Position numbers and translations under genes: made by a program. 64,000 nt of DNA, from the NCBI GenBank assembly GCA_030390025.1, contig CM059432.1, forward strand, positions 99,264,001-99,328,000, read 5' to 3'. Shown one piece after another: positions 4,377 through 63,585 of the stretch. Each line of letters begins with the position of its first letter. The stretch's first letter is position 1. The stretch is from Squalus acanthias (taxonomy: Eukaryota). The notes under the pieces were generated by a model. The model was not told the origin of the DNA. It did not search any database and saw only the letters and a list, made by a program, of their open reading frames with translations.

Positions 4377-4476
4377 GATGGATTGATTACTATATCTGGT
4401 TCCCTTCTACCATTTGAGTCGTAGCCGTCTGTTCCCAAAACTACTCAGAGCGTGGAGCAGGTCCAGTTGATTAAAT

Positions 4477-4704
4477 TGACGTAAGAAAACTACTAGGCAC
4501 TTGGTCTAAGCGTTAAAAAAGCTTTAATCAACTGTTTTTCAACATGGAGATCTAGTTGTGTCCTTCACTCGTTCCTGTTAAGGAATGTCCTGAGCAAGCT
4601 GGGCCCATGCCCGAGTATTTATACTTTCCCTGGACAGCGCCACCAGCAGGCTGCCCAGTATTACTTCATAAGTAATTTCCACATGAATGACAAGATTCAT
4701 GTCA
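4477..4704 (-). repeat. 5' LTR of Gypsy element
   Basis: Direct repeat of 1818-2046; minus-strand TATAAATA (~4617-4624) and ATTAAA (4523-4528). Confidence 0.93.
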
Positions 4705-6405: not shown

Positions 6406-6588
6406 CCGAAAGAGGAATTACAAAAGAGGCAAAGAGCGAGGGAATTGCAGAGGTAATGACAGGAATTATGAGAGACAGAAAGAATATGAGAAAGAAAGAA
6501 GGAAGAAAGATGAAGAATGAGGACAGAGGGGGAATTTAAAAAAGGGAATGAGAGAGTGAATAGGAATGAGGAAATGTAGAGAGAGTTA

Positions 6589-7434: not shown

Positions 7435-7726
7435 TTAATGACAGAATACAATCCAGATTTGAAATACATAGCTGGAAACAAAGGGTAGATTTGCAACTTG
7501 TATACCGGGTGTAAAACTGGTGTTGCAGTCAGATGCCTGTTACAGAAACTGGCCCATGGAAATGAAAATCGGGTGTTTTTTATAATGGGCAGCAAGTTAA
7601 AGATTTACCCCAAAGTATGCCAAAAATGGACTAAGTTTCAAAATGTTTTGCATGCTGTACTTGCAGTTGTACTAAGAATACACTGGTATATGTGGCTCTT
7701 TGTTGCTGTACAGCTTCTTATTCCAG

Positions 7727-7881
7727 CTCTTGGGCTTTGAAAGGTTGGCCGCTCCTGCTTTATTAGGAACAACAGAGAAAGTATCACTGTGCACTGAAGC
7801 GGAGTTTGCACAGCAGCTAAGTAGCTGCAGCCTGGAAGATCAAAAGAAAGGGTGCATCAATAGATTATATAGACCCTCTGG
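7727..7881 (+). other. Candidate host exon (unidentified gene)
   Basis: Acceptor cttcttattccag, donor GG|gtaagc; only one frame is open (LLGFERLAAPALLGTTEKVSLCTEAEFAQQLSSCSLEDQKKGCINRLYRPSG); AT-rich non-repetitive flanks. Confidence 0.4.
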
Positions 7882-8762
7882 GTAAGCTACTTTGGATTTG
7901 CTTGTACATAGCAAACAAAATAATCTTCTTGGAATACAAAAATTCTTTTATTTGAAATTGTGGAAATGCATAGATTGTTATTATAATGAGCAGTTCAAAG
8001 GATACAAAGAATAAATTGGTGATATAAGACTTTCATATTCACTCGGATTTGAGAGGATTCATATATAGTAACAAAAGACCTATGGTTGCTGAAAGCTTTG
8101 ATATAAGTAATTAATTTGAATCATTACTTCTGTCCTGACATTAGTGACCTCCATTATCTATTATTTAATAAAGGATTCACTTTTCCTTAAGTACATTTCC
8201 ATTCGACTATTCAAATAAAGGACAAAGTTAGTGGGCTGGATTTTCAATGACCCGTGGAGTCGGGTTTGGAGGCGTGTGGGGGGTTAAAATAGCGAAAAGT
8301 GGCGGGCGGACCTGATCCCGACTCCATTCCGCCTCCACGCAATTTTGACAAAATCGGTTGCGGGGTTCCCGACTCCGTCCTGCCTCCAAGAGGCGGGAGA
8401 GGCCATTAAAGCCCTTAACAATCCCTAAATTGGCTCTGTAATGCCATTTTGAAGCATTTTAGGTAGTTTAACCCTTTTCCCACGTGAAGCACGCCTGATG
8501 TGAAACACGCCAGTGAAACCTGGCGGGAGCACAAGTGGATTGCTGACTCTCAGCTGCAGCTCAACCTTTAAATAGGAGATTTGATCAGCCATCAATTGCA
8601 GGTGGCAGGACTTTGTTGTCACAGGTCTGGGGGAACTTTTAGAAGGCATAACCACAGGTCTGGAAGTTTGGAGCCTGACACCCATCTGCAGTGTGACCTC
8701 CTGGGAACACCCTCTCGCCACCCTCATTGAGGGCATCCTCAACTGAGACATATACCAGAGGC

Positions 8763-10013
8763 ATGGGAGCCATTTATTTCCTTCCCTCCTGGATATCCGA
8801 TGAGGACGAACAACAGCCGCGGCACCAGCAGAACCATGAACAACAGCAGCACCAACAGCAGCAGCAACAGCAGGAGTGCCAAACTGCTGCTCACCCACCT
8901 GAAGCTGCACAGGACAGAAGGGCCCAGCGCATGGAAGGCCGTCGGCGCAGGAGATACCGCCCAAACAGGGTCTACAGACAGAGGGTGAGCTACCTCAACA
9001 TGTCTGAGCAGCAGTGCCAAAGGCAGCTCCGACTTTTGCGAGAGGTAGTGGGTGACATCTGCGCAATGCTGCAACAAGACCTGGAGCCCAGAGGACCAGG
9101 TGGACGCCCCTTACCAGTGGCTGTCAAAGTCACCACCGCACTCAACTTTTTTGCCTCAGGCTCATTCCAGGGATCAGCAGCAGACATCTGCGGCATCTCC
9201 CAGGCGGCTGCACACACCTGCATCACGCAGGTAACCGATGCCCTCTTTGCCATCGCGCACAATCACATCCATTTCACCAAGGATCGAGCAAGTGTCACGG
9301 CGTGTGCGGTTGGATTAGCTAATCTGGCAGGCTTTCCAAGGGTGCAGGGCGTCATTGACTGTACACATGTGGCCCTTAAGGCACCCCATCGCAATCCAGG
9401 TATTTTTGTCAACTGCAAGGGCTTCCACTCCCTCAACGTTCAGCTGGTGTGTGACCACAACAAGGAAGTTCTGCATGTTTGTGCCAAGTACCCTGGCAGT
9501 TGCCATGACTCCTTCATACTGCGCCAGTCTAGTGTGCCTCCACTATTCAGTCCGCCAGACCAACTTCACGGATGGCTACTTGGAGACAAGGGCTATCCCC
9601 TGAAGACATGGCTAATGACGCCGTTGAGGAGCCCATCCAACGCAGCTGAGGAGAGCTACAACTCCAGCCACATTTCCACCAGAGCCATAATCGAGCAAAC
9701 CATCGGTATGCTGAAGATGCGCTTCAGATGCCTGGATAGATCAGGTGGAGCCCTGCAATAATCAGCAGCCAGGGTCTCCAGAATCGTCGTGGTTTGCTGT
9801 GCACTTCACAACATGGCACAGCGTCGTGGCTTACAGATGCCGGAGGACCAAGTGGCTCCTCACATAGCCTCCTCAGATAAGGAGGAGGAGGAGGAGGAGG
9901 AGGAGAGAGAGAACGAACAACTTGCAGAGGCCCCTCAACCAGCGGCAGCATTATGCGAGACCATAGCTGCCCGGAATGCAAGGAACGCACTCATCTTGGC
10001 CAGATTTGCTTAG
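8763..10013 (+). pseudogene. Harbinger (HARBI1-like) DDE transposase, one premature stop
   Basis: [70 protein letters not shown]. ORFs 8727-9761 and 9789-10013 share a frame, broken only by TAA at 9759-9761. Confidence 0.93.
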
Positions 10014-10270
10014 CCTAGACAAGCAAGCACTTTTGCCTCGCAGCTTCTTACCAGAGCTACGACAATGGCCCAGACCCAGCGGATCCCTAACAATGTGACC
10101 ACCATACTGACAATTGCAAGTTATCCTAAGGCCTCATTGTGGAAGTCCCATTAGCGAAATGACAGACGCCACAACAGAAGCTGTAGCCATCAGAGTTTTT
10201 ATTTACACTTTACACCTGATGGCTTTTTCACATTAAACATCAAAATTCACCCAAGTGACTACCCTTGTGA

Positions 10271-12146
10271 CTATTTGTGCAGTTTCTTTCTCTTACGCGT
10301 GCTCATATGTGGTGCTTCCCCTGTGGCTTCAGCAGAAGTGGAGGCCCCCTGCTCAGTTTGTTGCTGCTCCTGTCTCGACTCCTTTGCCGGGCGTCCTCTG
10401 GGGTTGCGAAACTGCGAGGGCTCGGCAACAGTCTGCTGCTCCTGCGGCTGGGCAGGGGTTGAGACGCCGATCTCACTTGGGTGCGGATTCTGGTGGGGCT
10501 CTGACCAAGGACTTGTCAGTGGCATGGAAGTGTGAGCGCTTGGAGAGGAGCCCCCACCTCCTTGTTGTGTGCCACCAACATCCATCTCATGGGCCAGGTC
10601 CACCTCAGCGCTTGCAAGTGGCTTGAGAGCACTTTGCTGCACATCAGGGGGGCCATGGGGACCCATATCTGCACTGGAAGTCCTACTCAGAAAGACTTCC
10701 ATGAAGGTCTGGTTTCTCTGTTCAATAGATGACCATCGCTCCTCAAGAGATGCCAGTCTATTCTGAACAATGACCATGTTGTCTGCACTCTGGCGACTTA
10801 TCTCCTCCATAGCCGTAGCCTTCCTCTCCTCTACTGTAGCCATCCTTTCCACGGAGGTTGCCATCCTTTCCGTGGTGATGCGTTCATGCGCCAATGACTC
10901 CACAAAGGCTCTGCTCATGTTCGCTATGGACTCCTCCATTCGCTCCACACTCGCAGCGACCCTGGAGACAAAACCTGTCAGAGACTCCTGCATCTGTTCC
11001 TGGAGTCCCAGCACCGCTGATCTTATGGATGGACCCAGAGGCAGAGGATCGACATGCAGCTGAGCCGAGCTGGCAGAGTCCTGCGCCCTCCGACTAGGAC
11101 TCTCCACTGCTGTCCCTGTCTCCACCATCTGCTGATGCTCACTTGTGAGCTGTGATAAACCAGGTGACAACACTACTCTATGTCCCAAGGGTCCCACCGA
11201 GGTGTGAGTGTCTGCGCTGGTGCTGGGTGTGCTGAGTTCTGCTGACGCTGCGCCCTCAGAGGTTGCAGCTTCCTCTGAGGAGTCTGTCTGCTCAGGCTCT
11301 TCCTCCTGGCTAGTGGGGACGGGTGCTTGCGATGGTCCTGTGGGGGAGTAAAGGAAAGAGTCAGAGATGTGATGCCAAGGTTACATGCACATTGCATATT
11401 GCAGATGATCATAAATCCATGATGCACCCGTCTGTCCGTCCCCCACTTGCGTATCCTCCTCTACGTCCACGATCTCCAGGACCGCATCCTCCCAGGGGAT
11501 GAGCTGGGCTAATGAGGGTAGCCCTCCTCCTGTCCTGGCTCTTTCCCTTTAATTGTGAGCTCTCTTTTCCTGCAATGAGGGAGACAAGTGGAGTTTGAGT
11601 GAGATTGAAGCAGTGAGTGTAAAGAGTCCATAGCATAGATGCTTAGAAGGAGACAAAGATGGATTGAGGTAGCGAGACCAAGGGCCCTCCCTGTGTGTTG
11701 TAAATTGTTTTCAAAGCATGACAGTGATAGGTAGTGTGAGGGCTGCATAGTCGAATAGTAAGGTGAATGTGACCATAGAGGGAGAGGGAATGGGTAAGGG
11801 TGCATGGATGTCAGTGTCAAGTGGGATATGGAGGAAGAGGTTGCTAAAGCTGAGTGCTGGTGAGGAGAGGCAATGGGGATCAGATTGAAGGGAAAGTCAT
11901 ACTCACTTTAGCAGTACGTAGAAGGTCATGAAACCTCTTCCTGCACTGGATCCAGGTTCTGCAGGTGAATGATAAGGAGGTGACCTCCTGGGCGATCTGG
12001 ACCCACACAGCCTTGGTCTGCTGGGGAGGCTTCTTCCTCCCTGAGGAGGGGAAGAGCACCTCCCTGTTGGCTCTTGCTCCATCCACCAAAGCCTGCAGGG
12101 CAACGTCATGGAACCTGGGAGCAGACCTGGGCCGTTGGCTGGCCAT
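10271..12146 (-). pseudogene. Harbinger ORF2, Myb/SANT-like DNA-binding protein, 3 exons (12146-11907, 11569-~11428, 11337-10271)
   Basis: Exon 1 MASQRPRSAPRFHD..WVQIA..RTWIQCRKRFHDL|gtgagt; exon 2 EKRAHN*RERARTGGG (one stop; donor is a weak GT); exon 3 joins in phase 1 to the 308-aa ORF, which has a coiled-coil-like middle and a basic C-terminus RKRKK. Confidence 0.85.
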
Positions 12147-12655
12147 TCCTGCTGCAGTTGCCTTTAGAATAGAGGTCCAAAAGCTTGGCAGCCTGCAAAG
12201 GAAGCAAGGCTTGTTGCAGACCTTAAATGCAGCAGCAATGATGACGTCATCGGAGGCAACTTTCAGACTGGAATAACTCATTGGCCATGGGTTCCCACAT
12301 GTTGGAACTCAATTGGCCAATTAAGTTAAAATCGCATCATTCATCCACATTAATCTGGAGTCGGGTGGGCAACACGAAATGCGGGTAACATGACCCCAAC
12401 CTGCCCCAGTATCAAAATCCAGCCCAGTGTATTTGTGAAAATCCAAATTATGAATAAGTAGTGAGTAGATATAAGAAAATTAAGCATTTGTAAATGTTTC
12501 GCGCATTTGTTTGTCAGGTTTTAAACATTTATTTCATATTTGCTTATATTACAAATGCAGAGCACCAATAAACAGATTATTTATTCCAGTTTATTATTCA
12601 ATCATGTTTACATTTCACAACAATGCAAAACACTTGTTTTCTTTTCTCTCTCCAG

Positions 12656-19060: not shown

Positions 19061-20900
19061 TCTTGGCAATCAAAGTAATGAAGGTTAAATCCAAAAGTAC
19101 CTGCAAAGTGATGCTCAGTAGCCAAAACTACTTCACACAGTGTTGACTCTATGCAGAAGTCTCTCTATCTCTCTCTCAGAATCTCTCTCTCCGTCAGAAT
19201 GAGTGGTGCAAAAATGTCTACCACAGAAAAAGCCAGGAAGAGGGCGCTTTTAAATAACGCCCCCCCAGCCCCTCACCGACTGGGAAACTTTCCAGTTTTC
19301 CCTGTCATTGCTTGCGCCAGGCGGAAAGGAGGGGGGCGCCACTCAATATCAGGTCCGGGGCACCACCAGGGCGTTGCACGCTCAACTGATGTCACGATCA
19401 GTGGGCGCAGGAGATTGGGGCGCTAAACTTTTGCGCCGCCGTAAAAACTCTAGTCAATTTTGCGATCGGCGCAAACATCACTGCGCACGGGCACTAGTTG
19501 TTTTGCGCCCTATTAGCGCCCTCTTAGGGTGCTAACGGGAGGTGCAAGCCAACCGAATTTTTCCCACATTATCTATTTAATTTTAAATTGCCCCGATTTT
19601 GCTGTAGCAAGATATCTAACAGTGTCAGCCGTTAGTTAGATTTGCCCTTGTACATTTAGGCTTTTAAATTTTTTGTGTGGCAAGTTGCTGAAAGTGCGAG
19701 CTGATAATGTCGCAGCGAGGGAAACAGGCCATCTGGGACCTGAGTGAACGGGACAAGCAACTGTATATCGCCTTAACCAATCAGATTGAAGGATTGTGAA
19801 ATAAACAATGCAAGGACTGAGAAGGAAGTGTAAATTAGACTGGATGAATTCAATGCCAAATCAGGTACAGAAAGAGAAATAAAGAGAAAGAAAGATTGGA
19901 TTAAGAGAGAGAGAAAAAAGAGACAGAAAGGAAAAGTAAAAAAAATGCTTTAAATTTTAAATATGAGATTTTAAAAATCTCCGTAAACAATTAAGACATG
20001 AAGGAATAAGACTCCACACTTGTAATTTTACATAGGATTACATAGGATATACGGCACAGAAACAGGCCATTCGGCCCAAACAGTCCATGCTGGCGTTTAT
20101 GCTCCACACGAGCCTCCTCCCGTCTTTCCTCATCTAAATCTATCAGCATAACCCTCTATTTCCTTCTCCCTCATATGCTTGTCTAGCCTCCCCTTAAATG
20201 CAACTATACTATTCGCCTCAACTACTCCCTGTGGTAGCGAGTTCCACATTCTCACCACTCTTTGGGTAAAGAAGTTTCTTCTGAATTCCCTATTGGATTT
20301 CTTGGTGACTATCTTATATTGATGGCCTCCAGGTATGCTCGTCCCCACAAGTGGAAACATTCTCTCTGTATCCACTCTATCAAAGTTTTTCATAATTTTA
20401 AAGACCTTTCTTAGGTCACCCCTCAGCCTTCCTTTTTCAAGAGAAAAGAGACGCAGCCTGTTCATCCTTTCCTGATAGGTATACCCTCGCATTTCTGGTA
20501 TTATCCTTGTAAATCTTCTCTGCACCCTCTCCAGTGCCTCTATATCCTTTTATAATATGGTAACCAGAACTGTACACAGTACTCTAAGTGTGGTCTAACA
20601 AAGATTCGATACAAGTTTACCATAACTTTCCTACTTTTCAATTCTATGCCTGTAGAAACAAAACCCAGTGCTTGGTTTGCTTTTTTTATGGCCTTGCTAA
20701 CTTGTGTTGCAACTTTTAGTGATTGGTGTATTTGTACTCCTAGATCCCTTTGTTCCTCTACCCCATGTAGACTCGCACCCTCCAAGTAATAAGTGACCTC
20801 ATACAAAAAGAAAATACTGCAGATGCTGGAAATCTGAAATAAAAACAGAAAATGCTGGAGAAACTCAGCAGGGCAGGCAGCATCTGTGAAGAGAGAAACA

Positions 20901-20940
20901 GAGTTAACGTTTCAGGTCGATGACCTTTCGTCAGAACTGG
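20901..20940 (-). ncRNA. Minimal hammerhead ribozyme motif (pLTR copy 1)
   Basis: Minus strand CAGTT-CTGACGA-A-AGGTC-ATC-GACCT-GAAA-CGTTAACT: CUGANGA box, stem II, GAAA box and a short palindromic stem III. Confidence 0.8.
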
Positions 20941-21243
20941 AAAAAGCAGGAAATGGAACAGATTTTTAAGCAAGTGTAGAGGCTGGGAAAGGGGGGAGGG
21001 GATGAAAGAACAAAAGGGAAGGTCTGTGATAGGATAGAAGGTGCAAGAGGTTAAGAGACATTAATAGATATTCAAGGCAAAAGGAGATGGTAATGGAACA
21101 GGTTAAGAAACAAAGGATGGCTCTAGATGAAGTGTAAATTGCGCTGGCAGAATGAAAGACAGTTGCCATGTGGGGGAGAAGAAAAAAAGACAGACAAAGA
21201 GTGCGGATAAAAAATATATATATATATATGATAGGGGCCGAGG

Positions 21244-23965
21244 TTATGATCGGAAATTGTTGAACTCTATGTTGAGTCTGGAAGGCTGTAAAGTGCCTAA
21301 TCGAAAGATAAGGTGCTGTTCCTCGAGCTTACGCTGAGCTTCCGTGGAACAATGCAAGAGGCCAAAGACAGTGAGGTCTGAGTGGGAGTGGTGCAAAGAA
21401 TTAAAGTGACAGGCGACCGGAAGCTCGGGGTCCCCCTTATGGACTGAACGGAGGTGTTCCATGAAGCGGTTACCCAATCTGCGTTTGGTCTCCCCAATGT
21501 AGAGGAGACCGCATCGTGAGCAGCGAATACAGTATACTAAATTGAAAGAAGTACAAGTAAATCGCTATTTCACCTGGAAGGGGTGTTGGGGGCCCTGGAC
21601 ATTGGGAAGGGGGGAGGTATAAGGGCATGTGTTGCATCTCCTGCGCTTGCACGGGAAGGTGCCGGGCGAAGGGGAAGGGGTGTTGGGGGTGATAGAGAAG
21701 TGGACTAGGGTGTCGCGGAGGGAGCGGTCCCTACGGAATGCTGAAAGGGGAGGTGAGGGGAAGATGCGTTTGGTGGTGGGATCACGCTGTAGGTGGCGGA
21801 AATGGCGGAGGATAATCCGTTGAATGTGGAGGCAGGTGGGGTGAAAGGTGAGGACAAGGGGAACTCTGTCGTGGTTCCGAAGGGAGGGGCAGGGGTGAGG
21901 GCAGAAGTGCGGGAGATAGAACGGACACGGTCAAGGGCCGTGTCAACTACTGTAGAGGGTAATCCTCGGTTGAGGAAAAAGGAAGACATGTCAGAAGCAC
22001 TGGTATGGAAGGTGACATCGTCAGAGCAGATGTGGCGGAGACGGAGAAACTGGGAGAATGGAATAGAGTCCTTACAGGAGGCGGGGTGGGAGGAAGTGTA
22101 GTCCAGCTAGCTGTGGGAGTCAGTGGGTTTGTAGTGAATGTTTGTCAATAACCTATCCCCAGAGATGGAGACGGAGAAGTCGAGGAAGGGAAGGGAAGAG
22201 TCGGAGATGGACCATGTGAAGGTGAGGGAAGGGTGGAAATTGGAGCAAAGTGAATGACATTATCTAGTTCAGGGCGAGAGCAGGAAACAGCACCGATACA
22301 GTCATCAATGTACCGGAAAAATAGGTGAGGAAGGGAACCCGAGTAGGACTGCAACAAAGAGTGTTCCACATATCCCACGAAAAGGCAGGCATAGCTAGGA
22401 CCCATCCGGGTTCCCATCGCAACACCTTTGATTTGGAGGAAGTGAGTGGAGTCAAAGGAGAAGTTGTTCAATGTGAGAACAAGTTCAGCCAGGCGGAGGA
22501 GGGTGATGGTGAATGGGGACTGGTTGGGCCTCTGTTCAAGGAAGAAGCGGAGCACCCTCAGGCCATCCTGGTGGGGGATGGAGGTGTAGAGGGATTGTAT
22601 GTCCATAGTGAAAAGGCGGCGGTTGGGGCCAGGAAACTGGAAACTGTTAAAGTGGCGGAGGGCGTCGGAAGAGTAGCGGATGTAGGTGGGAAGAGACTGG
22701 ACAAGGGGAGAAAAAATAGAGTCGAGATAGGAAGAGATAAGTTCTGTGGGGCAAGAACAGGCTGAAACAATGGGTCTACCAGGGCAGTCCTGTTTGTGGA
22801 TCTTGGGAAGGAGGTAGAAGCGGGCTGTGCGGGGTTGGGGAACTATGAGGTTGGCGGCCGTGGGGGGAAGATCTCCAGAGGAGATGAGGTCAGTGACAGT
22901 CTTGGAAACGGTGGCTTGATGTTCGGTAGTGGGGTCATGGTCCAGGCGGAGGTAGGAAGAGGTGTCAGAGATTTGGCGTTCAGCTTCCACTAGGTAGAGG
23001 TCGGTTCGCCAAACAACAACAGCACCACCCTTGTCAGCAGGTTTAATGACAATGTCGGGGTTGGATCTGAGAGAATGGAGTGCTGCAAGTTCAGAGGGAG
23101 GTAGGTTGGAGTAAGTGAGGGGAGCAGAGAAATGGAGACGGCCATTGTCACACCGGCAGTTTGCAATGAAAATATCTAGAGAGGGTAAGAGGCCAGAGGG
23201 AGGGGCCAAGGTGGAACGACAATTCTGAAAGCGGGAGAAAGGGTCAGCTGTGCGGGGGAAGACTCCTGGCCAAAGAAGTGGGCACGGAGATGAAGGCGGT
23301 GGAAAAAGAGCTCAGCATTGTGCCGAGCTCGAAATTCATTGAGGTGGGGGCGTAAGGGGATGAAGCTCAGGCCTTTGCTAAGGACTGATCGTTCGGGGTC
23401 AGAGAGGGGAAGGTCAGAGGGGATAGTGAAAACGCGGCAGGGGGTGAGATTGGGAGAAGGGATGGGGTCAGAAGAAAGTGAAGGAGAAGAAGGTTCCGGA
23501 GGGGCGTTGGTGTCCAAGAGTTGTTGAAGCTTGCGATCCTTGACACCTGGAAGGAAGAAAAAAAGTTTTTTGTTAAAGCGTCGAATGAGGCGAAGGATGA
23601 AATGGAACTGCGGACCAGGACAGCTTTGAGAGGTCGAGAGTGTTCATGTGGCAGTGCATGGCATTCAGCGTGGATCTCAGGATACCGCAAGAGCAGTGGT
23701 TCGAGGAACGCTGAATATCTTGGAGATATCTGTAGTCCTGGGTGGATCCAAAACACGAAGGGTGGAATTTCAGTTGGAATCCACGTGGAGTAAGTCGGAG
23801 CCGGAGCCAGTTGCTGAGGAAAGATATGTGGTGGTGAAAGCGAGTTTTGGTAGATACCTGATCAAACACGAGAAGGGAGACAGAAAGCAATGAAGATGAA
23901 CAAGGTAAAAGAGACAAACGGAAATCCCGTCGGAGAGAAGAACAGAACTTCTTCAAGGTGGGCAT
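21244..23965 (-). pseudogene. Penelope RT/GIY-YIG endonuclease polyprotein, frameshifted
   Basis: LSKGLSFIP, IKPADKGGAVVV, LPKIHK, GRPIVS, SLYTSIP, GVAMGTRMGPSYA, RYIDD; C-terminal CSRCGLLYIGET..RFMEH..VACHFN..EQHLIFRLGTLQP. Confidence 0.93.
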
Positions 23966-24099
23966 TCTTGAAAGTGAGGTGGCAGTGCATTAAACACTAA
24001 TACAAATAGAAAATACTGCAGATGCTGGAAATCTGAAATAAAAACAGAAAATGCTGGAGAAACTCAGCAGGTCAGGCAGCATCTGTGAAGAGAGAAACA

Positions 24100-24137
24100 G
24101 AGTTAACGTTTCAGGTCGATGACCTTTCATCAGAACT
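24100..24137 (-). ncRNA. Minimal hammerhead ribozyme motif (pLTR copy 2)
   Basis: Minus strand AGTT-CTGATGA-A-AGGTC-ATC-GACCT-GAAA-CGTTAACT. Confidence 0.8.
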
Positions 24138-24535
24138 TGAAAAAAGCAGGAAATGGAACAGATTTTTAAGCAAGTGCAGAGGCTGGGAAAGGGGGGAGGG
24201 GATGAAAGAACAAAAGGGAAGGATAGAAGGCGGAAGAGGTGGGGAGAAGAAAAAAAGACAAAGAGTGTGGATAAAAGAAATATATATATATGATAGGGGC
24301 CGAGGTTATGATCTGAAATTGTTGAACTCTATGTTGAGTCTGGAAGGCTGTAAAGTGCCGAATCGAAAGATGAGGTGCTGTTCCTCGAGCTTACGCTTTC
24401 AGATCATAACCTTGGCCCCTATCATATATATTTTTTATCCACACTCTTTGTCTGTCTTTTTTAGCTTCTCTCCCACATGGCAGCTGTCTTTCATTCTGCC
24501 AATTTACACTTCATCTAGAGCCATCCTGCTTTTTT

Positions 24536-24575
24536 CCAGTTCTGACGAAAGGTCATCGACCTGAAACGTTAACTC
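24536..24575 (+). ncRNA. Minimal hammerhead ribozyme motif (inverted pLTR)
   Basis: CCAGTT-CTGACGA-A-AGGTC-ATC-GACCT-GAAA-CGTTAACTCT on + strand. Confidence 0.8.
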
Positions 24576-26015
24576 TGTTTCTCTTCACAGATGCTACCTG
24601 ACCTGCTGAGTTTCTCCAGCATTTTCTGTTTTTATTTAATAAGCGACCTCCCTATTCTTCCTACCAAAATGTAATACCTCACATTTATCTGTGTTGAACT
24701 TCATTTGCCAATTATATGCTCATTCTGTAAGTTTATTAATGTTCTCCTGTAATTTGTTGCTGTCCTCCTCAGTATTGACTATCTCCCCTAATTTAGTGTC
24801 ATCTGCAAATTTAGAAATTGTGTTTTTGATTCCTAAGTCTAAATCGTTAATGTAAATTGTGAACAGCAATTTTCAGTGTCAGAGAGGTCGATTGGCAGTA
24901 ATTAACAATTATCAAATCGTTAAAAGGATACTTAGACTTGAAATGAGAGGACTAAACTTTAGTGAGTTTAGTTCGTATCCTGCGTAAATTCAGCAACTTC
25001 AGCTATTCAATGTATTTCAACAGTGAGGCTGACAGCGAGATGCCATTTTCGCGAAGTTAACAGTAGAGCAGTGCAACTCGGAAAACTATTTTTGGATATT
25101 TGCACTTAACAGCGCATCTGCCTCTCATCTGAAGTTGCTGTACCATTTGTGCATAAATAGCAGCGAGAGCCATTAGCATCACCGTTATTTTGACAGCAAA
25201 ATCTGGCCCAATGTTTTGTAAACAAGTCTGAAATCTAGTAGTCTTAAACATCTGATATCTGAAGGTTCAGTATGAAGAATGTGTTAGCATGTTTGGTGAT
25301 CAATTCCTGAGCATACATCCAATATCTGCTTGGCTGAGGTGTGAGAGTGAGAATTGCTGAGAAATTCTTGGTGGACTGTTGAAAGCAAAATCCGTGGTGC
25401 CAGCTCATTATAATGATTGGAGCGCTGAGCTCAGCACTAAACGAGCTGCTGTTTGGCTCAGTGCTCAACGGGGGGGCCAGGATCGGGTACAGTCCGCTGG
25501 CCAATAAAATTTTGGCAAGGCTCTCTGCACTTCTGAAAGGGGAGGTGCTTTTTTGCAGAAGCACCTAACTGTCACTGTGGCTGTAGCAGTGTCGCAACAG
25601 GGAAGAGAAAGGTCATCTCGCTTCTCAGATGCAGCACTAGAGGCCTTGGTCCAGTGGGTATAAAGAAAAAGACAAGGTCCTCTACACACAGGGGGGCAGG
25701 AGGCCTTTGAGACAGAACGCCAAAAGGCTGTGGGAGGAGATAGCCCAAGCCGTCAGTGCCACCGGTGTTGCCCCCAGGACCTGGACCCAGTGCCGCAAGA
25801 AGTTTAAAGAATTGACACGAGTGGTCAAGGTCAGTGAATGCATCTACAAATGCTATATCCCACCAACTGCACCACTAGCCTCACACATTGCTCAATGCAC
25901 CACAACTCCCATCACTCACCTATCAACATTCTCTAACAATCACAACTCATACCTCACAATCATAGTTTCACCTCACCCTCACACACTTACCACTGCTGCA
26001 AACCTCACACCCACA

Positions 26016-34632: not shown

Positions 34633-35188
34633 AATAGCTATTGCTATCAGCATGGGAGTCAAAATGGATGTAAAATTGGGCGAAGATCCAAGTTGCTGGC
34701 TTTCCACTCATCCTGCAATTATTGGAAACTTCCTCTGGGGCAGAAAATGGGCAGTGCAAGCGTTTGCCGAAAACAGGAGAGTGTTTCATTTTGATAATGA
34801 ATTTAAATGTCATGCCAATGAACAAAGGCACAATTTCAAGGGCTTAGTGCCAGGAATACACCTTCCCTTAATTTCACCATTGTAAACAAGGTCTTGGAGG
34901 CAGGCCCATTCTGAGTTGACATGAAGTCAGCATTTAAAAGGCTTTCAGAATAATAGTACCTGGAAGTGAAATTTTTCTGTACATTAGCAGTAGATTATTA
35001 TTTTAAGTGCTAATTTTACCAGTTAATTTTGGAGGATTTTGGCAAAAGAGATTTGATTGGATGAGCTGCAGTTGTTTCAATGATATATTACAAATATAAA
35101 TGTTTCAACAGGTGTTCCATTACTTTTGTGTTATTTGGTGGGTGAAGAAGAGGATGAAAGGAGGCAGGTCAAATTGCAAACAAGGCAG

Positions 35189-36809
35189 TGTAAGGGGTCA
35201 CGGTGCTGGTGCGAGGTGAGGCCTTCGTTGCCTATACTATTGCTTGCTCTGGTCTCCGGCCAGACTTTTGCAATAAGCACCTGTGAGTGGTTCGACCCAC
35301 TCGCCCTTACGGTTCTGACACCTGGACTTAGATGCAAGGAGCAGTAATGCAGAGAAAAGACTCAAATAGACCTGGTTGAATAGCACGAAATGAATATCTT
35401 TATTGCATGGCGTCTAAAATCATGAAATACATGTCATAGGCGCAGATCAAAGAGAGTACAAGTATACACACGTTCATAAAACTTGGTCTATGGAAATGGG
35501 GAACACACGGCACATCGAAAAAGGGGGAACACATTATACATTAACCTAAGAAAACCACCCTCCCTTAATATACCTAAACTACGTCTGGATTTGTAGGATC
35601 GGAAAACATGCTCACCACTCGGCTCACTTCGGAAATTTAAAGTGAGGCACTCAGCTCGTTTTGCTGCAGCGCCTGACTGTCACGTGGTTGTAAGGGTTTC
35701 TGCACCCCACTTGTTTACTCTCGCTGTCACGAAAGGTAAGCCAGATTTCTTGATGTCATGAAGTGGTCGATGGATTCAGACCGGATCGTGGAGTAGTCCG
35801 TAGAATTCAAAGAAAACGGTTCATGTAGTAGTCTGTAGAATTCAAAAATGGATTCTGTCGTTATATCTTCGGGCGCGGTCGGGGTTTACTGACCGCGGCG
35901 GCACGTGGAATTTCTTCTCGTCTTTCTTCTCGTCTTTCTTCTGGTTGCTCGGGCCTCTGGGTCCGGACACCGTTTACCGACGCTCGGGATGGTGTACCCT
36001 GTTACTTGCCCTGTCGAGGCGGCTCGTTCCGATTGAGCTCCACCCAACACTTGAATAACCGACCAGCACGGCGAAAAGTCAAGAGCCAAGAGAGCCCGAG
36101 AGGGTCCAGCCCGAGAGAGAGAGAGAGTCACAGAAGAGGCCAGGAAGCGCTTCAGGAAGAGAGAGCGATGGACATTTGTCCCCTATAGTTATACTGCCTT
36201 GTCCGCCTTATCTCCCGCTCAAATCTAAACGTTTATACTTTGTGTGATTTTGGCGCCCAAAACTCCCAGCATGGGGCGATTATCTTCTTAACGGGTTTCG
36301 GTAACACCTGAAACTGGCCAACTATCCGTTAATACCTTCTCCATTGTTGAGCCAGCCAGGATGTGTATGAATCGTCTCCTCGACTGGTTTTTGGGGCCCC
36401 CCGAATACTGGCTTAATCACCCACCAATGTCTCTCTCATTGTTGAGCCGGGGTGGGTATTTGTGTATTGATGTGTCTGGATGGGTTCTCGATGGCCCAGC
36501 TCAATGATCCTTACTGTGCGTAGGAAACGATTCCAGCACTTATATCATTGCTATTGTCCAAAATGCAAACGGGATGCATCCTGTCTTTACAATGTGTACC
36601 GAGTATGATCCGATCTCATACTGAATGTATATTCGGCGCCATCTTGTCTGCCCACTGTGTCTCTGGAAGCTTCTGCCACGATGCGCGGCGGCCATTTTAC
36701 AGGCTTCTGTGTCCTTTATTATCAGGGCAGCATTTCGTTTAATAAAAATGTTCAATTGAACCTGCTTCTCTCATATTATTTTGAATCGCGATAATTGCGA
36801 AACTCTACA
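35189..36809 (-). mobile_element. Long solo LTR (~1.6 kb), copy A
   Basis: TGTA..TACA ends, 4-bp TSD GCAG, minus-strand AATAAA (~35399-35404), patchy similarity to 47566-49171 and 61900-63557. Confidence 0.82.
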
Positions 36810-36870
36810 GCAGTCTACCCATACCCGCAGTTACCTAGAAAACTTAATCTACAGGTAGGGGGAATCCCAT

Positions 36871-37721
36871 GGGCTGGATTTTCAGTGACCCGTGGAGGTG
36901 GGTTTGGAGGCGTGTGGGGGGTTAAAATTGCAAAAACTGGCGGTCGGGCACAAGTCCGCCTCCATCCTGCCTCCACGCAATTTTCATTAAATCGTGTCTG
37001 CTGGTCCCGACTCCGTCCCGCTTCTAAGAGACGGGATAGGCTGTTAAGGCTCTTAACAAGCACTAAATTGGCTCTATAATGCCATTTTGAAAGGCCTTTG
37101 TGATTTTAACCCTTGTTCTCCGTGAAGCACGCCTGTTCTGAAACACAATTGTGAAACCTGGCGGGAGCACATTTGGATAGCTGACTATCAGTGGCTGTGC
37201 TGACTATCAGTGACTGGCAGGCATCTGGGATGGAGGAACCATATCTGGGAGTGGTGGTGCAAAAAAATTCCTCTCTCTCTCTCTCTCTCTCTCTCATTTT
37301 GCATCCAGGTCCATGTCATGAAGTGGTCGATGGATTCAGACCGGATTGTGGAGTAGTCTGTAGAATTCAAAGAAAACGGTTCATGTAGTAGTCTGTAGAA
37401 TTCAAAAATGGATTCTGTCGTTATATCTTCGGGCGCGGTCGGGGTTTACTGACCACGGCGGCACGTGGAATTTCTTCTCGTCTTTCTTCTCGTCAAAAGG
37501 CCAGGCAGTCTCTGACCTTCAATGCAGCAGCAATGATGACATCATCAGAGGCGACTTTCAGACTGAAACCACTAATTGGTTCATGGGTTCCCACATGCTG
37601 GAACTCAATTGCCCAATTCGGTGAAAATCGCATCAATCTCCCACATCCAATTGCAGTCGGGTGGATAACACGAAAAGCGGATGACACGACCCCAACCCGC
37701 CCCAGTATCAAAATCCAACCC
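36871..37721 (+). mobile_element. Non-autonomous H1-related Harbinger carrying a captured LTR segment
   Basis: TIR GGGCTGGATTTT / AAAATCCAACCC, TSD CAT; arms match ~8233-8550 and ~12197-12425; 37313-37494 copies 35753-35934. Confidence 0.9.
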
Positions 37722-37724
37722 CAT

Positions 37725-37785
37725 GTGTCATCCTCAGCTCAATTGGTAGCACTCTTGCCTCTGAGTCAGAAGATTGTGGGATCAA
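37725..37785 (+). mobile_element. tRNA-derived SINE head fragment
   Basis: gctcaattggtagcactcttgcctctgagtcagaagattgtggg matches the head of the SINE at 63610. Confidence 0.7.
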
Positions 37786-37869
37786 TTTGCATGCATCAAT
37801 ATCATTTGCCAAGTATTTGCGAAACTAACCTTATGATATCATACAGCTTTTATTTTGGTGGTAATCTTC

Positions 37870-38112
37870 CATTCCACCTCCAGGTTTCCCTCCAAGTCAC
37901 ACACCATCCTGACTTGGAAGTATATTGCCTTTCCTTCATCGTCGCTGGGTCAAAATGCTGGAACTCCCTCCCTAACAGCACTGTGGGAGTACCATCACCA
38001 CACGAACTGCAGCGGTTCAAGAAGGTGGCTCACCACCACCTTCTCAAGGGCAATTAGGGATGGGCAATAAATGCTGGCCTTGCCAGTGACGCCCAAATCC
38101 CATGAATGAATT
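37870..38112 (+). mobile_element. LINE 3' end (CR1/L2-group)
   Basis: SKCWNSLP motif; matches the 3' end of the LINE at ~53440-53660. Confidence 0.7.
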
Positions 38113-46303: not shown

Positions 46304-49300
46304 GGGGGGACTTTTATCTTGGAGAAGCTCATGGGTTTAGGTGCGGGTCGGGGTGGGGGGGAGGGATTAAAGTGGCCGGAAATGCGTTTGTGTCCAGAAG
46401 CCGGCTCAAACGCGCCAAGTTCCAGGTATAACTCAGGTGTGTTCAGCAGGTTGCGCGTAACCCCCTCCATTGATGTAGGTTAGCAATTTAAATATGTAAA
46501 TGGCTCAATTCTAGCGATATTTCATCATACATTCGAATTTAACAATGCTTCCACGAGTTTCCTGAAACTCGCCATTGAAACCAAGGCGAGAACACAACAG
46601 CAATTCATGGAGCTCATTAAAAGTCAGGTAAATACAGCAATAAATATTCAGTGCTCACAGCTGCTATCTTACGTCCCACTGGGAAAGGGTTTGTTCAGAG
46701 TACTTGCGATGAGAGTTTAGTTTCTGAACTTTGGAGGCATTGAGACTCAGATCAGGCTGGCTGGTGCCTTGACTACCTGAGATTGGACCTCGGACGACTA
46801 GCAAAATGACCATCAGATGTGGAGAGATCTGCAGGTATTGAGATGAGAGGGGAGCAGCAGAGGGATGCAGCTCGCAGGAGGCACTACCCGTGAAACAGGG
46901 TGTACAGGCAGAGCCTCAGCTTCCTTGACCTCTTGGAACAGCAGTGCTTCTGCAGGCTAAGTTTGGCGGACATCTGCAGCCTCCTAGAAGAAGACCCTGC
47001 TGGACCTGATGGCCACACATTACCAGTGGTTGTGAAAGTGATTACCGCCCTCAATCTTTTTGACCCCGGAACCTTCCAGGGCTCTGCTGGGGTCATATCC
47101 AGGATCTCCCAGCCGGTTGCACACAAATGAATAAGGCAGGTTACTGATGGGTTGTTTGCCAGGGCCAGCAATTATATCAACTTTGCCTGCGATGACACCA
47201 GTCAAAATGAGCAGGCGCTCAGGTTTGCGTCCCTGGCTGGCTTCCCACAGATGTAGGCCGCCATCAACTGCACACACGTGGCAATCCACACACCCCCAGA
47301 TGAACTAGAAGTATTTGTAAGCCACAAGGGCTTCCACTCCATCAATGTTCAGCTGGTGCGCAACCACAAGAAAAGATTTATGCAGGTGTGAGTCAAATTC
47401 CTGGGAGCTGCCCGGGATGCCAAGGATTCCTTTATAGCTGTGAGGTTCTGTTAGTTACCACCACTGGACCAATGTGACAATCACATCCAATGGACACTCT
47501 CCTCCTCGCCACCAATGTGACTGACACAAAGCAGTCCTGCGAATAACCAATCACCCATTGCACATTGTAGAATTCGCAAAATTATCGCGATTTTATAATA
47601 ATGAGAAGGAGACATAAAGTTTCGTATAAACAGCTTTATTTCAGCAGAATGCTGTCATGTTTCAAAAGGGACACAAGCACCCTGTAAAATGGCCGCCACG
47701 CCTCGTGGCAGAAGGTTCTAGACTTTCAGTAGGCAGACAAGATGGCGTTTCATTAAACATTTCAGCAAGATCGGACAGGACTCAGCACATTGGAGATAAT
47801 GACAAGACGCGATGGGTTTGCATTTTAAACATAAATACTGGAATCGGTTTTCCAGGTCTATTGTACTGGGCGATCAAGGACCCATCCAAAGACATTGATA
47901 TGCGAATTCCCCACGGCTCTACGATGAGAGAGCCGTTCGCGGGTACTTACAGCAAGCATTTGGAAGCCCCAAAACCCCTCCAGGGAGACTCCTAGCCGGT
48001 TCCACAATGGGAGAAATATTAACGGGTACTCAGACAGTTACAAGTATCACCGAAACCCATTAACGACAAGTACCACCCCATACAAGAAGTTTGAGCGCCA
48101 AAACATAACAAAAGATGGACATTAAGATTGGGCGGGAGATAAGGAATTACAGTACTATAAACTGTAGTGTCCAAACGTCCATCTTTCTCTTATTCTCTGC
48201 CGACCACCGACTCTTATCGCTCTTATCCTCTGGCTGTTCATCGTGCTCTAGTCAACCTCGTGGCTTGCCGCGAAGATCTGTGGAGAACTGGTCTGCGAAG
48301 GCCAGTAAAATGGGCGCACCATCCCGAGGAGTCGGTAAACGGTGTGGGAACCGAAGGCCCGAGATGAGATGAGATGAGATGAGATGAGAAGAGAAGAAGA
48401 CGACAACACGTATCGCCACGGTCAGTAAACCCCGACCGCGCCCGAAAATCGATTAACCACTTCTTCGAATTCTATCGGCTACTCCACAACTGGTGTCGGT
48501 CCAGAAAGACTCTTCTTTGAATTTTACCGGCTAACTGGTGTCGAGCACAGGAAGAGTCTTCTTTGAGCAGTATCAGAACTCCGAGGTCAACACAGATCTT
48601 CATGACAGCAGACGGTCCAGCCTGCTAGCCGGAGCAAAGCAAGTAAACAAGTGGGGTACAGAGACCCCGGATCAACACGTGAATAGTCAGGTGTTGCCGA
48701 GCAGCGTTTCGGAATTCTCCGAGTTATCGCGAGTGGTGAGCATGAGTCTCGATCCTACAAATCTAGATTAGGACAGGTATTGATAGGGGAGGGTTTTTGT
48801 TTTAAGGATAATTATAATGTGTGTCCCCTTTTACGATGTGTCGTGCGCTCCTCGTTTCCCTAAAGCTAGTTGCATAAATGTGTGTAAGTTTGTACTGTCA
48901 GTAATCTGTGCTTATGACATGTATTTCGTAATCTTGAATAATATGCAATAAAGATTTTCCATTTCGCACTGTTCAACCGGGTCTACCTGAGTTTTTCTCT
49001 ACATTATTGTTCTCGCACCTAAGTCCAGTGTCAGAACCGTAAGGGCGAGTGGGTCGAACCACTCACAGGTGTCTAGTGCTACCAGGCTGGCTGGAGACCA
49101 GAATAGGCAACAAGGCCTAACCCCGCACTAGCACCCAGGCTAAACACAGAGCCACGGCGAAACCCCTTACAACATACCCTCATTGGTCCCCATCAATATA
49201 TGTCTTCCCATTCATCATCAAGCAACTGAAAAGGTGAGTTGCCATGCAGCAAACAAGCTTGGTGCAGATCAGTAACACGCTCTAAGATCAAGGCTAAGGT

Positions 49301-54904: not shown

Positions 54905-57425
54905 CATTGATGTAGTCTACATGGACTTCAGTAAGGCTTTTGACAAAGTCCCGCATGGGAGACTGGTCAAGAAGGTAAGAGCCCATGGGATCCAGGGCAA
55001 TTTGGCACATTGGATCCAAAATTGACTTAGTGGCAGGAGGCAGAGGGTGATGGTCAAAGGTTGTTTTTGTGACTGGAAGCCTGTGTCCAGTGGTGTACCG
55101 CAGGGATCGGTGCTGGGTTCCTTGCTGTTTGTAGTGTACATTAATGATTTAGATATGAATGTAGGAGGTATGATCAGTAAGTTCGCAGATGACATGAAAA
55201 TTGGTGGAGTGGTAAAAAGTGAGGAGGGAAGCCCCAGGCTACAGGACGATATAGACGGGTTGGTCAGATGGGCAGAACAGTGGCAAATGGAATTTAACCC
55301 TGAAAAGTGTGAGGTGATGCATTTTGGGAGGACTAACAAGGCAAGGGGATACACAATGAATGGTAGGACCCTAGGAAGGACAGAGGATCAGAGGGGCTGA
55401 AGGGATAATTACTAGTCCTAGCCCCTTTAGGGCTACCCCAGATCAGGCGTATTCCCCAGGCGTTCACTTTCAACTAAAGTTTGAGGTAGCCGGATCCTAA
55501 AGACACTTAATTGGGTCTAAAGGTCTGGACCATCTCTCCCTAAAGGAAAGGAACAACCTGAAAATGTTACCGTCCTCCAGATAGCACTTTTAATAAGTTT
55601 AGCTAGACTGTAACGTTCCGGATATTATGAGAGTCTGGAAAACTCCCCCAGAATTCTGCAACTCCTCACCAAAGAGTGTACAGAGATTGAGTTTGCGAGT
55701 TTGATACAGAATTATTACGTGAGACAATTCTAAAAATATATAGATTTATTAAAGAACCGACATGTAATTTACAGTTGGTGATTCAATCACAACATTAACA
55801 GTTACAAAAAGAGAAATCTTTACAATCTTATTATCAGAGATCCTTACTCTCAAATCTTAACTTTGCTACAGTTTTACAGTTCTTAGACTTATTCAGGTTA
55901 TCCACCAAAATCAAATACACTACCATTGATCCCCAAGGTACAAAGAGTTGTAGACTTACAGAGCCTGCCTCTGAAGCCTGAGAATCGCTTTGCCCCTTTA
56001 CAGTGAATCTATTATCCCATTTGAGAGTTCAATATTTATACCATTTTTCAGTGGTATTTCCTTTAAGGTTTTCTGCTGATGTAAGCTAATTATCTCTTGT
56101 AATTTTTCTGCTGGCTTATGCAATTCTTAGCCACCTCAGCTGGTAGCAATACAGATTCATGTCTCTCCTCTAGGTATTCGAAGCTTACCATAAAAAATGG
56201 TGTAACAGCAGGTGCATTTCATTTGATGTCATTTTTACTAAGGCCTTCTGCTTGTGCCTCTTTACGAAGTGTAAATTAGAATACCTTAACCAGGGTGATC
56301 TATGCAATTCTTAGTCACCTCAGCTGGTAGCAATACAGACTCATGTCTCTCCTCCAGGTGTTCGAAGCTTACCATAAAAAAACGGTATAACAGCAGGGGC
56401 ATTTCATTTGATATCATTTTTACTAAGGCCTTCTGTTTATGCCTCTTTACGGAGTATAAATTAGAACACCTTATACAGGGTGAAGCATTGTTTTATTCCA
56501 AAAGATTCAGACTGTCAGGAGCCTTTAACCTTCTGTTTCAATAAGGTTATTGATTCAGTGTCAACAACTATGTTATCTCTATTGCCAGAATGCTACTATA
56601 GCTGTTTCAGTTAGGTTTCCAGATTTCCAAACCCAGTTTGTCATGTTTTAATAAACCCAGAATTCTTTCATAGAATGGTGTATTTTTCTGAATAGGTTAT
56701 ATGGCTTATTCCTTCACAGACTTTGGTGTGCATGTACATAGATCCCTGAAAGCAGCAGGACAGGTAGATAAGGTGGTTAAGAAGGCATATGGGATACTTG
56801 CCTTCATTAGCCGAGGCTTAGAATATAAGAGCAGGGAGGTTATGATGGAGCTGTACAAAACGCTAGTTAGGCCACAGCTGGAATATTATGTGCAGTTCTG
56901 GTCGCCACACTATAGGAAGGATGTGATTGCATTAGAGAGGGTGCAGAGGCGATTCACCAGGATGTTACCTGGGCTGGAGCGTTTCAGCTATGAAGAGAGA
57001 CTGGACAGGCTGGGGTTGTTTGGCTTAGAGCAGAGAAGGCTGAGGGGGGACCTGATTGAGGTGTACAAAATTATGAGGGGCATAGATAGGGTAGATAGAA
57101 AGGAACTTTTCCCCTTAGTAGAGGGGTCAATAACCAGGGAGCATAGTTTCAAGGTAAGGGGCAGGATGTTTAGAGGGGATTTGAGGAAAAACTTTTTCAC
57201 CCAGAGGGTGGTTGGAATCTGGAACTCACTGCCTGAAAGGGTGGTAGAGGCAGGAACCCTCACAACATTCAAGAAGCATTTAGATGAGCACTTGAAACGT
57301 CATAGCATACAAGGCTACGGACCAAGTGCTGGAAAATGGGATTAGAATAAATAGGGCTTGATGGCTGGCGCGGACACGATGGGCCGAAGGGCCTCTTTCT
57401 GTGCTGTATAACTCTATGACTCTAT
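54905..57425 (+). mobile_element. CR1 LINE 3' part, split by an LTR-like insertion
   Basis: YMDFSKAFDKVPH, SGVPQGSVLG, KFADD; resumes at ~56719 (LVRPQLEY, FFTQRVV.IWNSLP); tail (ctctatga)n. Confidence 0.93.
55398..56716 (-). mobile_element. Solo-LTR-like insertion (~1.3 kb)
   Basis: Ends TGAAGGGATAA / TTATTCCTTCA, interrupts CR1 RT, ~183-bp tandem duplication (~56118-56485), minus-strand TATAAATA (~56033) and AATAAA (~55746); TSD unclear. Confidence 0.72.
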
Positions 57426-61399: not shown

Positions 61400-63585
61400 G
61401 CCCCCATGATTGGAGACCCCCCACGAGGCCTCACCACCCCCAGGCCTCTGATCCCCCCCACGAGGCCTCTGATTCCCTGAGGCCTCACCCCCCACCACCC
61501 CTCCCCATGCTCCTCCGGCACCCACCCAGCTCTTCCAGCCACAACCCGGTCCCCGATCTTCTTCTGACGCCTCCCCACCCCCCCTCGCTCCTCCAGCCGC
61601 TCCCTGGCCCCTGATCCTCTTCTGACGCTGCCCCCGCATTCTTCTCTGGCGCCCCCCACCCCCCACCCCCAACGAACTTCTTCCGACGCACCCCCCTGCT
61701 CCTCGGGCCGCCGTACGGCCCCCATGCGATCCCCCCCTCCTCCTCTCTGTGGCCTAGTGCAGCAGGCCTGCGCGCACGGAGCTAGCCAGCCTCTCAGGCT
61801 GTCTGGCTGCGGGTGGGAAACAGAGGCTTTCCATGCAAATCAGGCCCTGCCATTAAATTCGGCAGGGCCTGCGAGAAACCCATTTTCCCAGAGCCCCCCT
61901 GTAAGGGGTTCGCGTGGCTCTGTGCTTAGCCTGGGTGCTAGTGCGGGGTTAGGCCTTGTTGCCTGTTCTGGTCTCCAGCCAGCCTGGTAACACTAGACAC
62001 CTGTGAGTGGTTCGACCCACTCGCCCTTACGGTTCTAACACTGGACTTAGGTGCGAGAGCAATAATGCAGAGAAAACTCAGGTAGACCCGGTTGAATAGT
62101 ACGAAATGGAAAATCTTTATTGCATATTATTCAAGATTATGAAATACATGTCATAAGCACAGATTAATGACAGTACAAACTTACATACATTTATGCAACT
62201 AGGTTTAGGGAAACGAGGAGCGCATGACACATTGTAAAAGGGGACACACATTATAATTATCCTTAAAACATAAACCCTCCCCTATCAATACCTGTCCTAA
62301 TCTAGATCTGTAGGATCGAGACTCATGCTCACCACTCGTGATAACTCAGAGAATTCCGAGACGCTGCTCGGATGTTTTCACCACAGCACCTGACTATTCA
62401 CGTGTTGATCAGGGGTCCCTGTGCCCCACTTGTTTACTCGCTTTGCTCCGGCTAGCAGGCTGGACCGTCTGCTGTCATGAAGATCTGTGTTGACCTCGGA
62501 ACTCTGATAAAACTCAAAGAAGAGTCTTCCTGTGCTCGACACCAGTTAGCCGGTAAAATTCAAAGAAGAGTCTTTCTGGACCGACACCAGTTGTCGGTAG
62601 AACTCGAAGAAAAGTCTTTCAGGGCCAGTTGTGGAGTAGCCGGTAGAATTCGAAGAAGTGGTTAATCGATTTTCGGGCGCGGTCGGGGTTTACTGACCGC
62701 GGCGGCACGTGTAGTCGTCTTCTTCTCTTCTCATCTCATCTCATCTCATCTCCTTTCGGGCCTTCGGTTCCAACACCGTTTACCGACTTCTCGGGATGGT
62801 GCGCCCACTTACAGGCCTTCGCAGACCAGCTCTCCACAGATCTTCACGGCAAGCCACGAGGTTGACTCCCGGAAAATCAACGGATCAGAGAAGCGAGTCA
62901 AAGGAATAAGAGAAAGATGGACGTTTGGACACTACAGTTATAGTACTGTAATTCCTTATCTCCCGCCCAATCTTAATGTTCATCTTTTGTCATGTTTTGG
63001 CGCTCAAACTTCTTGTATGGGGTGGTACTTGTTGTTAATGGGTTTCGGTGATACTTGTAACTGTCTGAGTACCCGTTAATATTTCTCCCCTTGTGGAACC
63101 GGCTAGGAGTCTCCCTGGAGGGGTTTTGGGGGCCTCCGAATTCTTGCTGTGAGTACCCGCGAATGGCTCTCTCATCGTAGAGCCGTGGGGAATTTGCGTA
63201 TCAATGTCTTTGGATGGGCCCCTTGATTGCCCAGTACAATAGCTCTCATTTGTGCATGGAAAAACCCGATTCCAGCACTTATATTCCTTGCCTGGGTGTT
63301 AAAATGCAAAACGATCTCGTCTTGTCTTATCTCAATATGCTGAGTCCTGTCCGATCTTGCTGAAATGTGTATTGAAACGCCATCTTGTCTGCCTACTGAA
63401 AGTCTAGAACCTTCTGCCACGAGGCGTGGCGGCCATTTTACAGGCTGCTTGTGTCCGTTTTGAAACCTGACAGCATTTTGCTGAAATAAAGCCGTTTTAC
63501 GAAACTGTATATCTCTTTCTCATTATTTTTAAATCACGATAATTTGTGAATTCTACACTCCTGCCTTCTCCATTAAAATTCAGCC
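61400..63585. mobile_element. GC-rich MITE-like element interrupted by LTR copy C; left end unresolved
   Basis: C-rich short repeats at 61410-61745; right end AAAATTCAGCC resembles the Harbinger-type TIRs in this window. Confidence 0.45.
61900..63557 (-). mobile_element. Long solo LTR (~1.65 kb), copy C
   Basis: TGTA..TACA ends, flanks CCCC/CTCC, collinear with the reverse complement of 47566-49171. Confidence 0.88.

Follow-up and report, generated by a model that had tools for sequence, protein, structure and literature searches.

Copies of short DNA segments that were templated by a nearby donor and ended up within a transposable element (TE) have already been described in vertebrates. Pace, Sen, Batzer and Feschotte (2009) catalogued 824 human repair-mediated proximal duplications (RDs) with donors within 5 kb, and their paper gives a mean length of 162 bp, a median of 147 bp, a peak donor distance of about 1,200 bp, and 80 cases in zebrafish (PMC2671141). 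These RDs were found by searching for interrupted TEs (PMC2671141), and published cases typically show microhomology of 2 to 9 nt. Tan et al. (2021) reported 370 animal Pack-TIRs, nearly all of which were single-copy, mostly proximal, and mostly transposition independent, with 56.9% of donors located within 15 kb (PMC8277862). The set includes 21 PIF-Harbinger rows from frogs and alligator, 13 of which have a 116- to 350-bp donor within 5 kb, and the elephant shark contributed no cases and had no Harbinger element annotated (PMC8277862). For rice Pack-MULEs, the same source describes one third as multicopy, donors that frequently lie on other chromosomes, and cargo derived from host sequence (PMC8277862). 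A first-pass annotation of the locus described here had regarded capture of this type as mainly a plant phenomenon, a view contradicted by the vertebrate cases in these two sources, including the 21 Harbinger ones (PMC8277862, PMC2671141). In a literature search with most subscription papers outside its reach, we found no shark report of such a templated insertion.

The window that we analyzed is a stretch of 64,000 nucleotides from Squalus acanthias (GenBank assembly GCA_030390025.1, contig CM059432.1, positions 99,264,001 to 99,328,000 of the forward strand), in which an 851-bp Harbinger element (G, 36871-37721) is interrupted by a copy of part of a neighboring solo LTR (LTR A; Table 1). Like RDs as defined by Pace et al., the insert is at least 50 bp long and interrupts a TE whose halves remain in register to within 30 bp (with 0 or about 8 to 9 bases lost here), and its donor lies between 50 bp and 5 kb from it, at a gap of 1,378 bp compared with the RD peak of about 1,200 bp. 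An insert length of 182 bp against the RD mean of 162 bp and the absence of poly(A) also resemble RDs, and a small deletion may be a further likeness, its size (0 to 9 bases) varying, as does the microhomology, with the parent assumed. In contrast, microhomology at this locus amounts to 0 to 1 base, which is below the published 2 to 9 nt, and the donor is a multi-copy repeat of a kind that the RD filter, which discards nested TEs and anything with more than two hits, probably drops. RD donors are also required to be the reciprocal best match across the genome; LTR A is the best match in the window and shares one rare allele with the insert, but as a multi-copy LTR it would fall outside the uniqueness filter for purely methodological reasons. 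Sharks are also not among the species of the 2009 study (PMC2671141).

Comparison with the other two systems gave both likenesses and differences. As in Pack-TIRs, a TIR element with both ends and a target site duplication (TSD) contains a piece copied from nearby, and the 182-bp cargo falls within the 100- to 5,000-bp criterion. However, the Pack-TIR definition calls for non-TE cargo and no TE within 100 bp of the parent, whereas the cargo here is internal LTR sequence. In how it works, the composite resembles an RD or a single-copy Pack-TIR, but it is formally not a Pack-TIR because its cargo is TE sequence. Pack-MULEs likewise carry foreign sequence flanked by TIRs and a TSD, but the cargo here is TE derived, local, and apparently single-copy. 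The event is real but ordinary and belongs to a type of which vertebrate cases are already on record.

Table 1. Features of the composite element, its donor, and the reference Harbinger, numbered from the first base of the window
Feature	Position	Strand	Remarks
H1, full-length Harbinger relative (reference)	8233-12425	+	TSD AGT; transposase (+, 8727-9761), Myb/SANT gene (-)
Solo LTR A (donor element)	35189-36809		1,621 bp; TG...CA ends; 4-bp TSD GCAG
Donor segment	35753-35934	+	Internal to LTR A; 35-bp internal repeat and hairpin 35874-35897
Left TSD copy, CAT	36868-36870	+	
Left arm of non-autonomous Harbinger G	36871-37191	+	Left TIR 36871-36882; very high family depth in run contigs
Core of G	37192-37312	+	18-bp direct repeat 37180-37197/37199-37216; (CT)n tract; end grouped with right arm
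Inserted LTR A copy	37313-37494	+	182 bp; three CpG decays
Right arm of G	37495-37721	+	Right TIR 37710-37721, with a single mismatch (37718)
Right TSD copy, CAT	37722-37724	+	

A 182-base duplication matching solo LTR A

Self-comparison of the window aligned 37313-37494 with 35753-35934 on the same strand and without gaps, with 179 of 182 bases identical (98.35%; E = 5.8e-86), a start-to-start spacing of 1,560 bases, and a gap of 1,378 bp. Each of the three differences (C>T at 37347, C>T at 37359, and G>A at 37455) abolishes a CpG that is retained in the donor, leaving 16 CpGs in the donor and 13 in the insert. The first-pass annotation had given the same coordinates, spacing, and orientation and the same three CpG transitions, all of which were matched by the self-comparison. 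The match breaks off abruptly, with 0 additional identical bases at either end of the 182, which rules out a larger segmental duplication. The insert also lacks poly(A), an LTR terminus, and a 4-bp TSD, and the absence of the latter two rules out a nested LTR insertion. Elsewhere in the window, a head-to-tail duplication of about 183 bases with 91% identity is located at 56117-56483.

The direction of change is apparent from other copies of the LTR. In contigs of run X1, the donor allele accounts for depths of 4,598 of 4,745, 2,861 of 2,901, and 366,139 of 370,168 at the three changed sites. Since the donor allele prevails among the other LTR copies at each of these sites, the insert is the derived copy; the 3:0 polarity of the changes is not significant by itself (P = 0.25). 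We also considered the residual depth of the insert alleles at 37347 and 37359 as a sign of the insert in other samples. This candidate was rejected: depth in X4 is zero at 37347, and the T at 37359 does not serve as an insert marker because the same T occurs in the second unit of the LTR internal repeat.

None of the contigs listed bridges an insert junction (37312/37313 or 37494/37495); next to the left junction lies the (CT)n tract, where contigs are cut. An independent junction-spanning contig is missing from these rows, as would fit LTR sequence misplaced into the Harbinger element during assembly. However, random errors would make all three of three differences CpG transitions with a probability of about 2e-4, and all three are derived relative to the family. 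The three CpG decays thus count against assembly error, as does an exact 115-bp contig in X1 that spans the junction between LTR A and G (36785-36899). We regard an artefact of this type as extremely improbable and the 182-base duplication as confirmed.

The recipient element, its core, and the site of insertion

As the first-pass annotation had noted, CAT is present on both sides of G. The TIRs, which had likewise been described as kept, match at 11 of 12 positions, with the right TIR containing A at 37718, the fourth base from the end, where H1 contains G. The arms had been termed H1-like, and they are indeed homologous to both ends of H1; with 268 of 318 and 203 of 241 aligned columns identical (84%), though, H1 is a relative of G rather than its parent. 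Pfam matches in H1 comprised DDE_Tnp_4 (E = 6.6e-31, profile positions 1-136 of 158) and Myb_DNA-bind_5 (E = 1.9e-10). G combines the two criteria for non-autonomous PIF/Harbinger elements, which are short TIRs with a 3-bp TSD and ends homologous to an element coding for DDE_Tnp_4 and Myb/SANT proteins, and we therefore assign it to this class. The H1 transposase frame stops early, at 9759-9761, with 136 of the 158 DDE_Tnp_4 profile positions matched, and H1 is probably not an intact helper. A metagenome scan with a 29-base motif from a G arm returned 0 loci.

Other repeats are present around G and elsewhere in the window. A very abundant SINE-like repeat begins directly after the right TSD of G (37725-37785), with hundreds of loose ends at 37737-37785, and LTR A, G, and this repeat are packed within 2.6 kb. 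A Penelope-like retroelement, labeled from motifs, occupies 20798-24637, with RT-like frames on the minus strand (22145-23311) and direct and inverted terminal repeats of 93 to 97% identity (20798-21335 versus 23997-24637), and was apparently inserted in a LINE-like repeat. A small LTR retroelement at 1823-4704, whose 224-bp LTRs are 95% identical, contains a 51-bp tandem array as well as frames resembling gag and protease, with no RT-like frame among the ORFs listed.

When the 182 bases are removed, the right arm of G aligns unbroken to H1, with 37307-37312 corresponding to 12173-12178 and 37495-37499 corresponding to 12179-12183. To the left of the insert, 12 of 16 bases match H1, including the last six bases of the core, which are identical to H1 12173-12178. 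This continuity indicates that the insert interrupts the arm and does not lie at the breakpoint of a large deletion, contrary to the earlier proposal that capture took place at the gutting deletion. Another candidate for the parental sequence is a loose end in X6 before 37496 (seven contigs; median, 13 letters), in which 14 letters match the end of the core and 9 more follow before the arm. The number of bases lost at insertion would be 0 with H1 as the parent versus about 8 to 9 with the X6 loose end as the parent, and microhomology is at most about 1 base per junction with either parent. An empty orthologous site in a relative is a further RD criterion; none of the 15 joints listed, out of 26, is an empty-site joint. 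Joints from 36809 to 37527 or 37751 (side, 22 letters) bypass the unique spacer and were therefore not taken to indicate an empty site.

The first-pass annotation had interpreted 37190-37312 as a second captured filler. Beyond its last six bases, the core aligned to H1 with a score of 27.2, compared with a mean of 23.4 and a maximum of 33.1 for 30 shuffles. A blastn-short search of the window identified no source for the core past (CT)n and matches of 12 to 16 bases, and a 21-base core motif had one match in the window, which was itself. In the run contigs, depths of 13,510 (X1), 15,567 (X4), and 229 (X6) at 37198 and of 5,006, 17,735, and 123, respectively, at 37213 compare with 14.1 for the contig specific to the locus (36785-36899, 0 differences), with the proviso that core depths are not copy numbers. 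The (CT)n tract itself, at which contigs get cut, is unread. Core variants are present in 15, 14, and 5 contigs of X1, X4, and X6, respectively, and the left arm is linked to 37232-37240 in 4 of the 15 joints listed (short side of 20 to 28 letters at 85% likeness), mostly via other short spacers. The mean depth of the bin 37189-37254 was left out as evidence since spill-over from the arm end could yield it. The main Harbinger family diverges after 37191, where loose ends are found in all four runs analyzed out of 18 (X1, X4, X6, and X18). Most of the stretch thus recurs in other Harbinger copies, which argues against a second captured filler and suggests that the core is probably part of a pre-existing minor non-autonomous subfamily. 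With a core common to other family copies, G would have possessed the core already on landing, and gutting would have occurred earlier.

Two further features were observed in the core. The segment at 37271-37309, with (CT)n followed by ...CAG/G, resembles a 3' splice acceptor on the plus strand directly before the LTR piece. In addition, 17 bases at 37239-37255 are 76% similar to 37311-37327 at the start of the insert; this similarity is probably due to chance, but it could have aided the first strand invasion.

The position of the insert and the sharing of the core also bear on excision-triggered abortive gap repair, the classical Pack-type or P-element form of capture. In this scenario, G or a longer parent was excised, repair synthesis on the sister chromatid changed template to LTR A, and deletion, filler, and capture arose in a single event. 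This route, which is known for P elements according to Tan et al. (PMC8277862), would explain the retained TIRs and TSD and the local donor, and the X6 loose end permits the loss of about 8 to 9 bases at the junction. We nevertheless consider it unlikely. The insert is not at a large-deletion breakpoint, the core is common to other copies so that gutting came first, and excision would be expected to leave larger deletions, whereas those reported by Tan et al. are small in most cases, with a median of 4.6% of the element (PMC8277862).

Template, timing, and a proposed route

The window contains two other solo LTRs, B (47566-49171, minus strand) and C (61900-63557, plus strand), which are 94% identical to each other over the aligned columns and about 78% identical to A. 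The first-pass annotation had proposed that the insertion was templated locally, by a donor adjacent to the recipient, and had suggested asking if the insert is closer to A than to other LTR copies. Among the LTRs in the window, this is the case: the insert has 179 of 182 bases in common with A, compared with 104 of 125 aligned bases for B and 113 of 133 for C (83 to 85%, partial alignments), with the caveat that B and C are distant from A and that A's own subfamily is the fair comparison. Donor and insert also share A at a non-CpG site (35847 in the donor and 37407 in the insert), where G accounts for 8,998 of 8,998 (X1), 4,106 of 4,106 (X4), and 221 of 242.5 (X6) in depth, the other 21.5 in X6 not reading G. 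This shared-allele evidence comes from one site, with 40 of the 136 rows of variants listed. The shared allele, together with the finding of 0 donor-only changes in the 182 bases, favors LTR A as the template and implies that the source of the insert was probably local, as had been proposed.

No contig with the 37407 A allele was detected in X1 or X4, though X1 holds the LTR A/G junction exactly, and the insert is therefore unseen in independent data. The zero depth of this allele fits a loss of rare variants in repeat contigs, with a similar situation at LTR A sites 36500 and 36574.

The template may instead have been another LTR copy or an LTR transcript acting as an RNA or cDNA patch, with the proximity of LTR A being coincidental or resulting from later gene conversion with A. 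A-type LTRs are multi-copy, with depths of 2,900 to 9,000 over the piece in X1, so near-identical donors exist, and a single shared rare site is visible. However, we judge such a template to be very unlikely, since the shared 37407 allele is missing from the X1 and X4 depth, there is no donor-only difference in the 182 bases, and the insert is without poly(A) or a TSD. In Pace et al., 39 of 39 proximal cases likewise lacked retrotransposition marks (PMC2671141).

The relative timing of the copy and the landing of G was assessed from the rates of change in the arms and in the duplicated piece. Among the sites listed, the arms of G differ from at least 78% of the depth in X1 and X4 at nine, seven of which are non-CpG; these rows were picked by eye, and three arm rows with weaker majorities (37620, 37629, and 37678) were dropped. 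Donor and insert have 0 non-CpG differences in 150 sites, versus about 4.2 expected at the arm rate (P = 0.016), a test that is confounded by possible subfamily markers and that gives P = 0.09 if just four of the seven arm changes are private. We take this comparison as a weak hint that the copy may have been made after G landed.

The composite likely originated by a one-off, transposition-independent, repair-mediated proximal duplication that affected a MITE already in place, with G acting as a passive bystander. As their TSDs show, a solo LTR and G, then a non-autonomous Harbinger of roughly 670 bp, came to lie 61 bp apart. In the model that we propose, G would have carried its short core when landing, as supported by the presence of core variants in other copies. 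A break or a stalled fork may then have occurred within G, beside the (CT)n tract, with one end invading LTR A about 1.4 kb off by means of microhomology of at most about 1 base. From there, 180 to 182 bases could have been copied by SDSA-like synthesis and rejoined with 0 to 9 bases lost in a finish by end joining. Afterwards, the copy lost the three CpGs, one of them within the hairpin stem, as the comparison with other LTR copies shows.

Hairpin, mobility, and significance of the composite

The copied piece had been said to include a conserved hairpin, and we located one with a 9-bp stem at 35874-35897 in the donor piece and found a hairpin in LTR C as well. About 30 bases surrounding the hairpin are nearly identical in LTRs A, B, and C. 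The hairpin is real but of modest stability. Folding gave -22.3 kcal/mol (z = -2.0) for the hairpin in the donor and -19.4 kcal/mol (z = -1.4) in the insert, with z = -2.3 for that of LTR C and a modest z of -2.13 for the whole donor piece. The change at 37455 lies in the stem, and the resulting weakening of the insert hairpin fits neutral decay. An Rfam search of 35100-37900 returned no matches at E values up to 1, so the hairpin belongs to no named family.

A remaining suggestion of the first-pass annotation was that the composite might be mobile in trans. A multicopy Pack element would recur at several loci with different TSDs. No second copy was seen, which does not bear out this claim, and a composite in high copy number is unlikely given that the insert allele at 37407 has zero depth in both X1 and X4. 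Copies in X6 and X18 show different sequence before 37496, the right TIR is mismatched, one change of the insert falls in the hairpin stem, and multicopy cases number just 4 in the Tan et al. set (PMC8277862). On the other hand, the TIRs of G are near-intact, its family is very abundant with full-length relatives in the window, and low-copy variants drop out of run contigs, such that a few copies could hide. We therefore hold it to be very unlikely that the composite founded, or belongs to, a small mobilized Pack-Harbinger family, having been moved in trans by a Harbinger transposase to a few loci, with the window containing the founder beside its donor. Were this the case, it would represent a low-copy Pack-Harbinger carrying an LTR hairpin directly after an acceptor-like signal (37271-37309) and a cartilaginous-fish case in which capture and subsequent spread would both be datable. 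Most likely, the composite is single-copy and functionless.

As one more instance of a catalogued type of event, the insertion itself matters little. It indicates that proximal repair-mediated copying occurs also in the genome of Squalus acanthias and that repeat-to-repeat cases exist, though both published pipelines filter them out. The locus also provides a neat teaching case, with the donor, the recipient, and the direction of change readable in 2.6 kb. It would carry greater weight if the composite proved to be mobile or if the rate of such copying in a slowly evolving lineage could be derived from a genome-wide count.
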